From the NCBI GenBank assembly GCA_944355355.1, contig CALVQE010000002.1, positions 704 to 64,703 on the forward strand: a stretch of DNA of 64,000 nucleotides, given 5' to 3'. The notes under the pieces are model-generated. The model searched no databases and was not told where the DNA came from. It worked only from the letters and a program-made list of their open reading frames with translations. Both the position numbers and the translations under genes were made by a program. Numbering within the stretch: position 1 is the stretch's first letter; the number at the start of each line of letters is the position of its first letter. Origin of the DNA: an uncultured Bacilli bacterium (GTDB lineage: Bacteria; Bacillota_I; Bacilli_A; RF39; UBA660). This document shows positions 44,947 through 48,846 of the stretch, one piece after another.

Positions 44947-45806
44947 GAAAAATCTTTTTAAGCCTAGTTAGCTTAAGTCTAACTCTTGGACTTCTTTATA
45001 TTACGATTTCAGGATTGTTAAAATACAATTTACAAGAAGAACAATTTCTAAACTACCTCAAAGATAACGACATTAGCTTTTTACTCCGGACTCAATTTGG
45101 TGAAGAGAGCTCCTTTTATAAAGACTTAACTGCAGGACTTTCCCAAATTCAAATTCCCGAAGAAACCATCATTCCCATTCTAAACAGTGGACCCACCAAA
45201 GAATTTCTAGCTACATATATTTACAATGCCGTCTTATCCTATATATACGACGATGAACAACCAAAAGTGACCTCTGAAGAAATTCTCTCTCTTTTAGAAA
45301 GCAACTTTCCTGTTATTGAGCAAACCCTAGGTGAAGAACTAACTGAAGTCAAACAAAGCGAAATCTTAAACTATGCTAATATTTACATGGAAGATTTACA
45401 AGGTGCTTTACCGACCATAAATGAAGTCATTCAAAAAGTGGGGCTTACTTCTTTAGAAAACTTAAAAATTCTTATTCGTATCATGCAAAATAAAACCATC
45501 TTTATTTTAGTTAGTCTAGGATCACTTCTATTCCTTGGCTTACTAATCTTATTTACCCACGTAGCAAAAACCGATGAACACTATATTAAACGGAGTATTA
45601 CTTTATATGTAGCTATTTTGCTTGTTGTAGAAGTCTTAATTGGCACCATTTTAAAAGACTACTTTATGAGCGAAATTGCAATTATAAAAGTTTTCATCAA
45701 CTATCTATGTAATATCTTGGCCAAAGAAATCTGGTTATTTGTTTTCCTTGGCTTAGGAATTACACTTCTAATCAATCTCAATAATAAAAGGAGGAAAAAA
45801 ATATGA
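44940..45806 (+). CDS. Membrane protein, unknown function
   Basis: N-terminal TM plus a C-terminal three-to-four-TM block. Overlaps its neighbours. Confidence 0.5.
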   Translation: MVRKIFLSLVSLSLTLGLLYITISGLLKYNLQEEQFLNYLKDNDISFLLRTQFGEESSFYKDLTAGLSQIQIPEETIIPILNSGPTKEFLATYIYNAVLSYIYDDEQPKVTSEEILSLLESNFPVIEQTLGEELTEVKQSEILNYANIYMEDLQGALPTINEVIQKVGLTSLENLKILIRIMQNKTIFILVSLGSLLFLGLLILFTHVAKTDEHYIKRSITLYVAILLVVEVLIGTILKDYFMSEIAIIKVFINYLCNILAKEIWLFVFLGLGITLLINLNNKRRKKI

Positions 45807-46132
45807 GAAAATATATGGAAGAATATACCGAAGAAGTTTTAACAAAATTAAAAGGAAAAGTGACCAAAGAAGATCTAGAAGAGTTAAAACTCAAAATCAC
45901 ATACTTTCAACATGAACGACTAATTCATTTACTTGTCACCATTGCTTTTGCTATTTTTACAGTAATTTTTCTATGTTTGGGCATGATCTCTTATGTCTTC
46001 TTAATTCCCTTTACAAGCTTCATTATCTTTTTAATTTTCTACATCTTGCATTATTTCTTTTTAGAAAATCATGTTCAATATTTATACCGTTTGTATGACG
46101 AGATGAAAGCAAAATTGAAAGGTGGCAATTGA
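45803..46132 (+). CDS. Small two-TM membrane protein
   Basis: ATGA overlap. Hydrophobic core LIHLLVTIAFAIFTVIFLCLGMISYVFLIPFTSFIIFLIFYIL. Confidence 0.5.
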   Translation: MRKYMEEYTEEVLTKLKGKVTKEDLEELKLKITYFQHERLIHLLVTIAFAIFTVIFLCLGMISYVFLIPFTSFIIFLIFYILHYFFLENHVQYLYRLYDEMKAKLKGGN

Positions 46133-46437
46133 TAAAGAAGAAATCTGAGTTACGCAAAGAAAGCATATGATAAAAAGGACATAAGATATACCTAAACTAT
46201 GCTTGTTTATTTGTAAGTGACGGCGTGAATCAAAACAATTCAAGTCCATTTACAATTGTTTTACATTTGACTTTTTCAAGAGTTTTTAGTAGTATACAAG
46301 CTAATATTTTTTGTATTGATTATCTTTATATTGAAAATCATCCAAAAAATGTTATAATGTCTATAGAAAGCAATCTGTTTGTCTTTCTGTATGCTGTATG
46401 TATTATGTTTTTTGTTGCATAATATATTTTAGGACAT

Positions 46438-46474
46438 AAAAAAAGAGATACATTAGCCGTTAAGTGCTTATCTC
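46438..46474 (-). terminator. Rho-independent terminator (minus strand)
   Basis: On the minus strand: gagataagcacttaacggctaatgtatctc followed by a T7 run. Confidence 0.6.
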
Positions 46475-46632
46475 CGCCTTATGTTTCTATGTTTCGAGTG
46501 AAGAGCACCTTTCAAAGTCGCTATGACCAAGATTAGGTGCTCCTTTTTTAATGCTTCTGGTTGTGATCTCTTTGTAGAATATATAAAATCACTATTAAAG
46601 CAATTAAATATTCCAAATTGATCCTCTCTCAT
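46468..46632 (-). CDS. Candidate small ORF (54 aa) with its SD held in a hairpin
   Basis: ggaggtg SD (46645-46639) 6 nt upstream of ATG 46632. The SD lies in the 3' arm of the hairpin cctccgt / acggagg (46671-46641). Below the ORF-track cutoff. The stop lies inside the minus-strand terminator stem. Confidence 0.3.
   Translation of the reverse strand: MREDQFGIFNCFNSDFIYSTKRSQPEALKKEHLILVIATLKGALHSKHRNIRRR
46503..46550 (+). terminator. Rho-independent terminator (plus strand), convergent with the previous one
   Basis: gagcacct (46503-46510) / aggtgctc (46535-46542) followed by cttttttaa. Confidence 0.6.
46548..46616 (-). CDS. Alternative candidate ORF: 22-aa hydrophobic peptide (type I toxin-like)
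   Basis: TTG start 5 nt after agagga. (M)EYLIALIVILYILQRDHNQKH is a single TM helix with a charged tail. Overlaps the other candidate in a different frame. Confidence 0.3.
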   Translation of the reverse strand: MEYLIALIVILYILQRDHNQKH

Positions 46633-47044
46633 AGGCATCACCTCCGTTCTATCGCCATTGGATGACGGAGGAAAAGCACCTAACCAATGTATCTCGGATT
46701 AATTATATTATATAAAGTATAAAATAGCTAGATTTTTTGGTCTTGAATTGTTTGAAAAAAATGAAACATATAAAGCTTACAGTTTTGATAAGCATAAGTA
46801 TGTATTACGATACTTAAAAAAATAATATAACGAAACCTTATCTTGATAAAGTATAGCAAAGATGCTTCAATTCGCAAAATTCATAAATTGTTAAAAAATC
46901 TAGGAAAATAAAGGGATAAAAATATTTTGAATGTAAAAAAACTGAAAATTTCACTAATTTTTATTTTAAACCAGAAGCCAATCATACTAAATTTTCATTA
47001 ACTTATATAAGTTTTTAGTACATATTTGTTCATAAAATCCCTTA

Positions 47045-47265
47045 TTTTTTCTTAAAAACTAAATTTTGCGAATTGAAGAGCAAAGATGAAATCATACTTG
47101 CCAAACAAAAATGAATCTGATACAATGAAGGTGTTGATGAAGATGTTGCCTTACAACCAACGGAGTCAAATCGCTTATCGGCGTTACAGAAAGAGGTAGT
47201 TAATTCTATGAAATAGGGTGGTACCACGGGTATATTGCTCGTCCCTAGGTCATAGAATTTTTTTC
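47045..47265 (+). promoter_or_regulatory. T-box leader, Tyr specifier (UAC)
   Basis: UAC followed by A at 47152-47155. T-box aatagggtggtaccacgg (47212-47229). Terminator ctatgaaataggg / ccctaggtcatag followed by a T7 run. Confidence 0.75.
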
Positions 47266-47290
47266 ATTAAAAAGAGAAAGTGAGGATATT

Positions 47291-47635
47291 ATGAATCAAA
47301 CGGATATTTATAACGTACCTGTAAAAACTATGACAGAAGAGGGGACTATCCAGTCTTTTGATCATCTTTACTGTACCTATGATGAACTTTCCAACTGCTT
47401 TGTAGAGTGTATTACAAATACCTCTATTCCCAAAATACAAACCAAAGATGCAAAAGATTTAGACTTGCCCTTATTTGCTTTAGAGGAAGACAAATTCCTA
47501 AAAGTTCCTTTAAAAGACTATCAAAATTATTTGAAAAAAATGCGCAACCCGAGAGTAAGACAAACCTTAGAAAATAGGATTCACAACATTCTTTTGATAT
47601 CAGAAACACAAAAAGAAAAGAGGATAACATTATGA
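47291..47635 (+). CDS. Hypothetical protein between the T-box and tyrS
   Basis: RBS gaaagtgagg. ATGA overlap with tyrS. No family recognised. Confidence 0.5.
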   Translation: MNQTDIYNVPVKTMTEEGTIQSFDHLYCTYDELSNCFVECITNTSIPKIQTKDAKDLDLPLFALEEDKFLKVPLKDYQNYLKKMRNPRVRQTLENRIHNILLISETQKEKRITL

Positions 47636-48846
47636 CATTATATGAAGATTTGATGTGGCGTGGATTAATTAAAGACGTATCCACTCCAAATTTAAAAGAT
47701 ATTTTAGATAATCAAAAAATAACCTTTTATTGGGGAACCGACCCCTCAGCTGATAGCCTTCACTTAGGACACTACAGTTCTTTAGTGACAGCCAAAAGAT
47801 TAAGTAACTATGGCCATCATCCAATTTTATTGATTGGAGGATCAACCGGTTTAATTGGCGATCCACGTCCAACTGCCGAAAGAGAAATAATCTCCAAAGA
47901 AGCCGTTTTAAAAAATGCTGCTGGTATTAAAGCGCAAGTAGATAAAATCTTTGAAGGCAAAGCCAAAATCGTCAACAATTACGATTGGACCAAAGACGTA
48001 AGTCTCTTAGATTTCTTGCGAGACATTGGTAAATACATCAATGTAAACTATATGCTAGATAAAGATATCATTAAAAGAAGATTAGAAACCGGAATTACAT
48101 ATGCAGAGTTTTCTTATACACTTTTACAAGGCTATGATTTTCTTCATCTGTTTGAACACGAAAATTGTGTTTTACAAGCAGAAGGTTCAGATCAATGGGG
48201 AAATATTACAACCGGTATAGAACTCATTAAGAAGAAAACTGGAAAAGAAGCTTATGGTTTTACCATGCCATTAATTGTCGATAAAAATGGCAAAAAGTTT
48301 GGTAAAAGTGAAGGCAATGCTTTATGGTTAGACAAAGAAAAAACAAGTTCCTATGAACTATATCAATACCTAGTAAATACTGATGATGCTCTTGTTATTG
48401 ACTATTTAAAAGTATTTACCTTCTTAACTAAAGAAGAAATTGAAGAAATTGAAAGAAAACAAAAAGAAACACCAGAACTAAGAATTGCCCAAAAACGTCT
48501 AGCTGAAGAAATTATAACCGATTTACATGGTAAAGAAGAGTGGGAAAGAGCCTTAGAAATATCTGAATGCTTGTTTACGGGCAAAATAACTTCTTTAACA
48601 GACAAAGAAATAGAAACAGCTTTCAAAGGCGTTCCAATTCTAGCTTACCAAGATAAAAACTTATTAGATTTTTTAGTTGATGAACATGTTGCCTCATCCA
48701 AAAGAGAAGCAAGAGAATTTTTATCTGGCAATGCCATTACGATTAATGGAGAAATCGTGAATGAGGAAGATTATCATTTAGATGACACTCGTACTTATAA
48801 CGTTCTAAGAAGAGGCAAGAAAAAGTATTATTTAATCAAAAAGTAA
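47632..48846 (+). CDS. tyrS: Tyrosine--tRNA ligase
   Basis: HIGH motif (HLGHY), KMSKS variant (KFGKS), C-terminal S4-like domain. Confidence 0.95.
   Translation: MTLYEDLMWRGLIKDVSTPNLKDILDNQKITFYWGTDPSADSLHLGHYSSLVTAKRLSNYGHHPILLIGGSTGLIGDPRPTAEREIISKEAVLKNAAGIKAQVDKIFEGKAKIVNNYDWTKDVSLLDFLRDIGKYINVNYMLDKDIIKRRLETGITYAEFSYTLLQGYDFLHLFEHENCVLQAEGSDQWGNITTGIELIKKKTGKEAYGFTMPLIVDKNGKKFGKSEGNALWLDKEKTSSYELYQYLVNTDDALVIDYLKVFTFLTKEEIEEIERKQKETPELRIAQKRLAEEIITDLHGKEEWERALEISECLFTGKITSLTDKEIETAFKGVPILAYQDKNLLDFLVDEHVASSKREAREFLSGNAITINGEIVNEEDYHLDDTRTYNVLRRGKKKYYLIKK

Follow-up and report, generated by a model that had tools for sequence, protein, structure and literature searches.

The window analysed here is a stretch of 64,000 nucleotides (nt) from an uncultured Bacilli bacterium (contig CALVQE010000002.1, positions 704 to 64,703 of the forward strand), and between its positions 46331 and 46712 we recognise a locus that is likely to be an intact type I toxin-antitoxin (TA)-like module. 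The family to which this module belongs is absent from Pfam, NCBIfam and Rfam, and the toxicity of its peptide is predicted. A type I TA-like reading of the locus had been proposed in a preliminary description of the window. It is now supported by the relatives, which conserve the convergent geometry, the hidden Shine-Dalgarno (SD) sequence, the lock between the 5′ and 3′ ends and the tiny open reading frame (ORF). The overall layout is kept in dozens of copies elsewhere.

Layout of the module

The module lies in a gap between the end of the upstream ORF at 46132 and a T-box at 47059, which is about 0.93 kb long, or about 1.16 kb if measured to the next ORF; a gene-poor gap of about 1.1 kb had been reported before. 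All motifs of the preliminary description were recovered in their places by a script. Two terminators on the two strands face each other, as it had claimed, at 46503-46550 on the plus strand and at 46474-46438 on the minus strand. In the former, GAGCACCT (46503-10) pairs with AGGTGCTC (46535-42) and is followed by T6 (motif location by script). In the latter, GAGATA (46474-69) pairs with TATCTC (46450-45) and is followed by T7. When the sequence 46503-46550 is read on the minus strand, it forms a hairpin in the 3′ untranslated region (UTR) of the toxin mRNA, which we call HP1.

The two predicted RNAs overlap by 113 nt at their 3′ ends, close to the 110 nt or so expected earlier, and a perfect duplex over this stretch has a predicted energy of -206 kcal/mol. 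The preliminary description was apt in likening the geometry to that of txpA/RatA- and bsrG/SR4-type systems. The RNA sizes and the overlap match those of the Bacillus subtilis systems (PMC6562991). The main features are as follows (MFE, minimum free energy; aa, amino acids):

46331..46358, plus strand: antitoxin promoter, TTGAAA, 16 nt, TGtTATAAT, with 11 of 12 consensus positions and a TG extension
46364..46550, plus strand: predicted antitoxin RNA of about 187 nt, -46.4 kcal/mol, z = -3.8, its ends inferred from promoter and terminator
46503..46550, plus strand: antitoxin intrinsic terminator, GAGCACCT...AGGTGCTC then T6, the terminal hairpin in the fold of the plus-strand RNA
46438..46550, both strands: convergent RNA overlap of 113 nt, which begins at the toxin stop codon and does not cover the coding sequence
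46702..46712, minus strand: -10 region of the toxin promoter, two overlapping TATAAT boxes with a poor -35
46438..46695, minus strand: predicted toxin mRNA of about 258 nt, MFE -81.8 kcal/mol, with predicted ends
46548..46616, minus strand: toxin ORF, (M)EYLIALIVILYILQRDHNQKH, 22 aa, TTG start, with an SD-like AGAGAGGA at 46629-22
46468..46632, minus strand: leader ORF in frame A, 54 codons, ATG at 46632, 7 nt after a GGAGG SD

Selection on the 22-residue peptide

The 22 residues encoded by the toxin ORF comprise a hydrophobic core of 12 residues and a tail that is polar and basic. The consensus of the peptide family, M[DET]YLI[IVA]LIV[IL]L..LSKIY..KKD, is 20-23 aa long and is kept in more than 40 copies. 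The three reading frames were compared on 28 distinct sequences, using the first 16 codons in all pairwise combinations, with the following codon-pair differences:

22-aa frame: 1538 synonymous and 1870 non-synonymous (45 % synonymous)
54-aa frame: 150 synonymous and 3109 non-synonymous (4.6 % synonymous)
third frame: 634 synonymous and 2753 non-synonymous (19 % synonymous)

Moreover, the summed entropy at codon positions 1, 2 and 3 of the 22-aa frame is 12.2, 4.8 and 15.3, lowest at position 2, and the toxin start codon varies among copies between ATG, GTG and TTG. Given the synonymous share, the codon-position entropy and the alternation of start codons, the 22-aa ORF is, on this comparative evidence, the selected product and evolves under purifying selection. 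The tiny hydrophobic ORF from TTG 46616 that the preliminary description had listed as a candidate is thus present and constrained, at 45 % synonymous differences against 5 % and 19 % in the other frames. A frameshift from the leader frame into the toxin frame was also considered and ruled out, because the toxin frame of every copy opens with a valid start codon (ATG, GTG or TTG).

Seven peptides, the 54-aa frame included, were scanned against Pfam and NCBIfam and gave no match at E ≤ 10. We also searched for the PXXXG motif, and no intact peptide of the family has Pro or Gly in the hydrophobic core.

Predicted end-to-end closure of the toxin mRNA

The predicted toxin mRNA matches the family nhmmer profile over 46438..46695 with E = 1.7e-67. 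Its fold has a z score of -6.65, and none of 200 dinucleotide-preserving shuffles folded as well; the folding check suggested in the preliminary description thus gave stable structures for both predicted RNAs (z = -6.65 for the toxin and -3.8 for the antisense RNA). The fold brings the two ends of the toxin mRNA together through three helices, H1 to H3, whose strands are:

46664..46695, minus strand: closure 5′ strand, with H1 GAGAUACAU (46695-87), H2 UUAGGUGCUU (46684-75) and H3 CUCCGUC (46670-64), paired in both MFE and centroid structures
46445..46478, minus strand: closure 3′ strand, with GGCGGAG (46478-72), AAGCACUUAA (46469-60) and AUGUAUCUC (46453-45), directly 5′ of the U7 tail

In the window copy the closure consists of the pairings 46695-87/46453-45, 46684-75/46469-60 and 46670-64/46478-72. 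The closure 3′ strand doubles as a weak local terminator hairpin (GAGAUA/UAUCUC). Five homologues were folded and all of them were closed, the first approximately 30 nt pairing with the last approximately 35 nt before the U-tail in the MFE structure. In an alignment of 21 full-length copies, the pairs were counted as follows:

H1: 13 pairs, 98.9 % of cells paired, 5 pairs changing on both sides
H2: 11 pairs, 95.2 % of cells paired, 0 pairs changing on both sides
H3: 8 pairs, 89.3 % of cells paired, the unpaired cells coming largely from two misaligned copies of the window subfamily
HP1: 6 pairs, 96.7 % of cells paired, 0 pairs changing on both sides

When the 3′ partners were slid by 1-3 columns as a control, only 34-40 % of the cells were paired. 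In the window subfamily H3 folds as CUCCGUC/GGCGGAG. New compensatory versions of H1 occur in other genera, namely GAUGCAUCUAAAU/AUUUAGAUGCAUC, GAGAUACUUAAU/AUUAAGUAUCUC and GAGUAA..CCUAG/CUAGG..UUACUC. The closure helices contain 46 G.U pairs versus 8 A.C mismatches, and this excess indicates that the toxin-strand RNA is what is constrained, not inverted repeats in the DNA.

The preliminary description had placed the 5′-3′ lock elsewhere, between TTAGGTGCT (46683-75) and AGCACCTAA (46541-33). These segments are indeed perfectly complementary and conserved, and a lock as such is real and family-wide, but it joins the very ends of the mRNA, 46695-46664 with 46478-46445. Both in the MFE structure and across the family, the partner of UUAGGUGCUU is AAGCACUUAA at 46469-46460, not 46541-33. 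With the pairing of 46683-75 to 46541-33 enforced, the fold reaches -75.1 versus -81.8 kcal/mol, 6.7 kcal/mol less stable than the closure. We therefore rejected it as the main pairing and kept it only as a possible alternative conformer, which can form because HP1 holds a second copy of the complementary word. The local pairing of the downstream segment, seen before as an option, is HP1 itself, with its stem 96.7 % paired in the family.

As a side observation, the word UAGGUGCU stands twice in the toxin RNA, once at the 5′ end and once in HP1's 3′ arm, and its complement also stands twice, in the 5′ arm of HP1 and in the closure 3′ strand. The four segments are 46675-46684, 46533-46542, 46503-46512 and 46460-46469. 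They read GGUGU/ACACC in most copies of the family, and all four read GGUGC/GCAC in the window subfamily. Such a concerted change would fit either an alternative, cross-paired conformer or homogenisation of the repeats.

The hidden Shine-Dalgarno sequence

The strong SD had been described before as locked in the 3′ arm of the hairpin CCTCCGT/ACGGAGG (GGAGGTG, 46645-39). We find this arrangement in the window copy and conserved in the family:

46641..46671, minus strand: anti-SD hairpin, CCUCCGU (46671-65) with ACGGAGG (46647-41), burying the SD GGAGGUG (46645-39)

The anti-SD hairpin and H3 are mutually exclusive, as CCUCCGU pairs either with the SD or with the closure 3′ strand. The two states are isoenergetic: with the anti-SD hairpin enforced, the fold reaches -81.6 versus -81.8 kcal/mol for the MFE structure, only 0.2 apart. 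According to the fold prediction, the SD hairpin forms once the 113 nt of antisense overlap are made unavailable. Blocking the overlap in this way lowers the unpaired probability of the SD in the window copy from 0.40 to 0.01.

Promoters and the predicted antisense RNA

A strong, near-consensus promoter on the plus strand, absent from the preliminary description, precedes the antisense gene. It is present in nearly all of the 21 full-length copies, with a -35 box TTGAAT, TTGAAA or TTGCAA, a spacer of about 17 nt and a -10 box TGnTATAAT. On the toxin strand, a TATAAT box precedes the conserved 5′ end by 6-8 nt in 21 of 21 copies, with no good -35 box accompanying it. A strong antitoxin promoter and a weak toxin promoter are the usual imbalance of type I systems.

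The predicted antitoxin RNA consists of two hairpins (approximately 46364-46389 and 46398-46427), the stretch antisense to the toxin 3′ end and its own terminator, in this order. The stems of the 5′ hairpins, AGAAAG/CTTTCT and ATTATG/CATAAT, are conserved and their loops are variable. We searched the 5′ domain of the antitoxin for global complementarity to the toxin 5′ region and obtained no consistent signal (z from -3.4 to +0.9). A shorter match is found in 14 of 21 copies, where two copies of the word (AT)GTCCTA(T) stand, one right before the leader ATG and the other a little beyond the toxin terminator, inside the antisense gene. In 11 of 21 copies the repeated word is 7 nt or longer, compared to 6.6 % of control windows. 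From the position of these sites, the antisense RNA could pair with the leader start region. The repeat is interrupted in the window copy (ATGCCTA against ATGTCCTA) and therefore probably contributes little there.

A probable overlapping leader frame

Regarding the 54-codon ORF from ATG 46632, the situation is different from that of the toxin frame. The ORF named in the preliminary description is present, but it does not look like a selected product (4.6 % synonymous differences) and resembles a leader instead. The 54-aa frame is, judging from the frame comparison, not selected for its amino-acid sequence, and its position and openness are nevertheless conserved. A GGAGG-type SD lies 7-8 nt 5′ of the leader ATG in nearly all intact copies. 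The distance from the leader ATG to the toxin start is 10, 13, 16, 19, 22 or 28 nt, always 1 mod 3, i.e. in the +1 register. The distance from the leader ATG to HP1 is 89, 92, 95, 98, 101 or 104 nt, all 2 mod 3, in 20 of 26 copies. The frame passes through the toxin ORF and HP1 and terminates in the closure strand; stops are present there in each of the three frames.

In the segment from the toxin stop to the closure strand, the leader frame is stop-free in 18 of 20 copies (mean 0.10 stops), in contrast to the other two frames, which have means of 1.75 and 1.65 stops in the same segment and no stop-free copy in either. Shuffled versions of the segment have 1.30 stops on average and are stop-free in 26 % of cases. 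Altogether, the leader frame is open for 37-59 codons in nearly all intact copies.

With moderate confidence, we interpret the 54-aa frame as a conserved overlapping leader ORF with a predicted role like that of mok in hok/sok. A more specific scheme is offered as a tentative and rather doubtful possibility. The leader ORF would be translated, and its ribosomes would traverse the toxin ORF and HP1 into the closure strand; the switch between SD and anti-SD would gate this translation, which would open the closed mRNA and license the toxin start. The antisense RNA would displace the closure strand in the manner of SR4 and, in many copies, also pair directly with the leader start by means of the GTCCTA repeat, like Sok and RNA II. 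To our knowledge, no mok-like coupling device has so far been described for Gram-positive type I systems.

Distribution and decayed copies

The search of relatives proposed in the preliminary description recovered both the ORFs and the complementary segments. Using BLAST with a more typical copy, we found the module in 24 of the 47 genomes of the genus, often with several copies per genome or in tandem; three tandem copies stand on one contig (G047:C69). A search of the fetched loci with the nhmmer profile gave 43 distinct copies. The peptide profile has matches in 17 of 301 genomes, representing 15 of 214 sampled genera of the same GTDB family, and most of these loci also match the DNA profile, nearly over its full length. 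In public records the carriers are named "uncultured Bacilli bacterium" or "uncultured Tenericutes bacterium" and are gut metagenome-assembled genomes, one of them explicitly from chicken.

The nearest relative (locus L009, G022:C72 1381-1720) carries a region orthologous to window 46300-47100. It is 96 % identical over 46300-46514, which takes in the antisense gene and the toxin 3′ UTR, and the toxin part thereafter is divergent, with a breakpoint inside HP1 near 46514. Its 22-codon ORF, (M)EYLIALIVILALLVKFFDHKN, shares the first 11 residues with the window copy, and 6 of those codons differ synonymously. This copy lacks the toxin promoter, the closure 5′ strand and the leader SD and abuts the T-box promoter; it looks like a 5′-truncated toxin with an orphan antitoxin.

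Other copies deviate as well. At locus L012 (G002:C95, 1235-1604), a 10-nt deletion in the toxin ORF fuses the hydrophobic core to a 41-aa frame and the leader frame is shortened to 28 codons; from its sequence, this copy is probably decaying. Several further copies are 5′-truncated or lie at contig ends. In two other GTDB families of the class, we observed similar peptides starting with MEYL[IV]IL..., e.g. MEYLVILVVILYLITKDGNDDHDNK (L049 in G429, L050 in G240, L047 in G212 and L053 in G251). In these loci a hairpin AGUUC...GAACU stands on the 5′ side, the toxin ATG is immediately preceded by a strong SD, and a leader ORF is lacking; a bidirectional terminator is flanked on either side by a direct repeat, a layout more like par.

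Proposed mechanism

The elements combined in the following scheme were obtained in silico: the family itself, selection on the peptide, both promoters, covariation in the closure, sequestration of the SD with its predicted switch, conservation of the leader and the presence in the genome of a gene for RNase III and two genes for RNase J. From them we infer the transcripts and their ends, the order of events, the toxicity and the role of the leader ORF. The weak promoter, with its -10 box only, would drive a minus-strand toxin mRNA of about 258 nt (46695→46438). After termination, the last 34 nt before the U-tail would pair with the first 32 nt, so that both ends are hidden. The strong SD would sit at a balance point, with the anti-SD CCUCCGU pairing either with the SD or with the closure 3′ strand. 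From the strong promoter, a plus-strand RNA of about 187 nt would be made that matches the final 113 nt of the mRNA with perfect complementarity, i.e. HP1 and the closure strand. Its binding would strip the closure strand from the 5′ end; the freed anti-SD would lock the SD and block translation, the freed 5′ end would be exposed to RNase J, and the long duplex would be a substrate of RNase III, with decay as the outcome. If the antisense RNA were lacking, ribosomes would translate the stable closed mRNA, and its peptide product would enter the membrane and stop growth. The leader ORF, with its strong SD and ATG 46632, probably gates or couples translation of the toxin, as mok does for hok.

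Several observations weigh against the reading of the locus as a TA-like module. With about 12 residues, the hydrophobic core is short for spanning a membrane. The two RNAs, like their ends, are themselves predictions from the sequence. The minus-strand terminator is weak, its local hairpin reaching -8.3 kcal/mol, and neither terminator was detected by a simple terminator scan; both hairpins have loops longer than 8 nt, which explains this result, and folding was used instead. The mean change of SD accessibility in the family is modest, from 0.23 to 0.11 over 21 copies. The covariation cells were counted in related sequences, so there are fewer independent events than cells; despite counts inflated by relatedness, the distinct H1 variants nevertheless point to several independent changes. 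Finally, the window genome, a 1.37-Mb assembly in 80 contigs, has a single copy of the module. The search for paralogues in this genome, also proposed in the preliminary description, found none.

Alternative explanations

The most probable alternative is that the peptide is small, membrane-bound and harmless (it could regulate a membrane complex or be one of its subunits), that a cis-antisense RNA adjusts its expression, and that the two do not form a TA pair. Many small membrane proteins of Gram-positive bacteria are not toxins, the toxicity is a prediction, and the hydrophobic stretch of about 12 residues is short, which all speak for this explanation. We nevertheless consider it unlikely. 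The spread is patchy, covering about 7 % of the genera of the family and half of the genomes of the genus, and there are tandem copies, varied contexts and decayed or 5′-truncated forms that keep the antisense gene. Patchiness, tandems and decayed copies fit a selfish TA-like module better than a housekeeping subunit. Moreover, layered silencing, with closed ends, a buried SD and a weak toxin promoter opposed to a strong antisense promoter, is a hallmark of type I systems.

The module could also be seen as a small, non-autonomous mobile element similar to miniature inverted-repeat transposable elements, in which terminal inverted repeats were mistaken for RNA pairing and the ORFs are incidental. 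The unit does occur in many copies in different contexts, often at contig ends, and its own ends carry inverted repeats of about 30 nt. In addition, a 16-nt inverted repeat brackets the window copy:

46233..46248 and 46738-46753, no strand assigned: arms AAACAATTCAAGTCCA / TGGTCTTGAATTGTTT, 15 of 16 positions complementary

This repeat encloses the whole module with both promoters. Chance alone would produce, as a rough estimate, about 0.1 repeats of this kind in the stretch, and the arms may mark the limits of a mobile cassette or match by coincidence. Against a mere mobile element stand the 46 G.U pairs versus 8 A.C mismatches in the closure helices, which point to a constraint on one RNA strand, and the purifying selection with synonymous change in the peptide frame. 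Two promoters and SD sequences are kept at fixed positions, and the inverted repeat at the ends of the unit exactly abuts a U-tract and a predicted transcription start. We regard this explanation as very improbable as the sole one, and a TA cassette may itself be mobile.

That the 54-aa ORF from ATG 46632 is the real protein product and the 22-aa frame a by-product is hardly credible: the 54-aa ORF does have the best ribosome-binding site of the locus (GGAGG, 7 nt, ATG) and a frame open for 37-59 codons in nearly all intact copies, but its sequence is conserved no further than the overlapping frame and HP1 impose (4.6 % against 45 % synonymous), its length and C-terminus vary from 23 to 59 aa, and it matches no Pfam or NCBIfam family.

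Neighbouring sequences

The AT-rich spacer between the module and the tyrS T-box contains a 35-nt inverted repeat (46865-46899 / 47044-47078), 77 % complementary, with 144 nt between the arms; the stretch of approximately 46640-47075 is absent from the nearest relative, G022. The T-box leader (47059-47249) was recognised with 51 bits, under the Rfam gathering score of 93 bits, and E = 8e-10. It precedes a 114-aa ORF (47291-47635), the stop of which overlaps the start of tyrS (47632-48846). The Rfam scan of 45800-47700 at E ≤ 10 returned the Tyr T-box together with chance matches to microRNAs and snoRNAs, and no antitoxin RNA family.

Significance

T1TAdb, with its 24 families, and similar catalogues draw on few cultured lineages. 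The family described here would be a new one, carried by uncultured gut Bacilli with small genomes, and the comparative support for each of its regulatory elements is unusually clear. The displacement-and-SD-lock mechanism of bsrG/SR4 is predicted to recur here without detectable sequence homology, which suggests that the design is either ancient or repeatedly reinvented. If the leader ORF is functional, the mok principle would extend beyond enterobacterial systems, and the locus would provide a natural example of the translation of one frame controlling another. The family profile can also be used for annotating such modules and explaining contig breaks in gut metagenome-assembled genomes.

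Comparison with known systems

The closest parallels are bsrG/SR4 of the prophage SPbeta and bsrE/SR5, which is similar to it in structure; they likewise consist of convergent genes with a cis-antisense RNA over the toxin mRNA's 3′ end. In B. subtilis the antitoxins are 163-222 nt, the toxin mRNAs 255-294 nt and the overlaps 100-140 nt long (PMC6562991), and the corresponding sizes here (about 187, about 258 and 113 nt) fall within these ranges. In bsrG mRNA, helix P1 joins nt 1-35 to nt 232-262 (Jahn and Brantl, PMC3834814), and a similarly long 5′-3′ helix is predicted here. Binding of SR4 was shown experimentally to leave nt 1-33 of bsrG single-stranded and to extend the SD helix from 4 to 8 bp (PMC3834814); in our predictions too, the SD lies in a short helix that is extended after the antisense RNA displaces the 5′ end. 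The differences are also substantial. The peptide has 22 aa instead of 38 and no detectable sequence similarity (no Pfam or NCBIfam match), and the RNAs match none of the Rfam type I antitoxin families at E ≤ 10; these searches gave no homology of toxin or antitoxin to members of the TxpA/BsrG and BsrE/BsrH families. The closure 3′ strand adjoins the U-tail and forms a terminator arm, whereas bsrG has a separate terminator after P1. Unlike in bsrG/SR4, the overlap extends no further than the toxin stop codon, an overlapping leader ORF is conserved, and the host is an uncultured gut Bacilli lineage with a small genome.

The par system of Enterococcus faecalis pAD1 (Fst / RNA I - RNA II) also has convergent promoters. 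In its toxin mRNA, 5′-UH sequesters the 5′ end and 5′-SL sequesters the SD, and the PXXXG motif has been defined for its peptides (PMC7472228). In our predictions, a helix likewise hides the extreme 5′ end and a 5′ stem-loop the SD. Fst is similar, too: it is small, its core is hydrophobic and its C-terminal tail is charged. The GTCCTA direct repeat of many copies, degenerate in the window copy, recalls DRa/DRb. However, the peptides here lack the PXXXG of Fst/Ldr, and there is no shared bidirectional terminator, as two separate terminators leave the RNAs overlapping by 113 nt. The antisense RNA is about 187 nt long, compared to about 40 nt in par, and the main complementarity lies in the 3′ UTR.

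In the Gram-negative hok/mok/sok of plasmid R1, and also in Ldr/Rdl, the full-length toxin mRNA likewise pairs its extreme 5′ end with its extreme 3′ end. Another common feature with hok/mok/sok is a leader frame that starts upstream of the toxin ORF and overlaps it; mok is the overlapping leader ORF required for translation of the toxin in hok/sok. In contrast to hok/sok, the antisense RNA is placed at the 3′ end of the mRNA and not over the leader start, and nothing points to a 3′ processing step. The peptide is far shorter and not related, with no Pfam match, and the host is Gram-positive-derived.

The Ibs toxins of E. coli, with 18-19 aa, are extremely hydrophobic and rich in I, L and V. 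They resemble the present peptide in being very short and hydrophobic, a likeness that carries no claim of homology. The antisense RNA of Ibs/Sib spans the whole ORF (PMC8594479). The polar tail is longer here, and neither an end-to-end closure nor a leader ORF is known to be described for Ibs/Sib. Because the logic is that of bsrG/SR4 without a match in Rfam, Pfam or NCBIfam, and the features shared with par and hok/sok are only partial, we place the locus, on comparative grounds, among the type I toxin-antitoxin systems as a new variant at the level of a family, with the predicted logic of bsrG/SR4.

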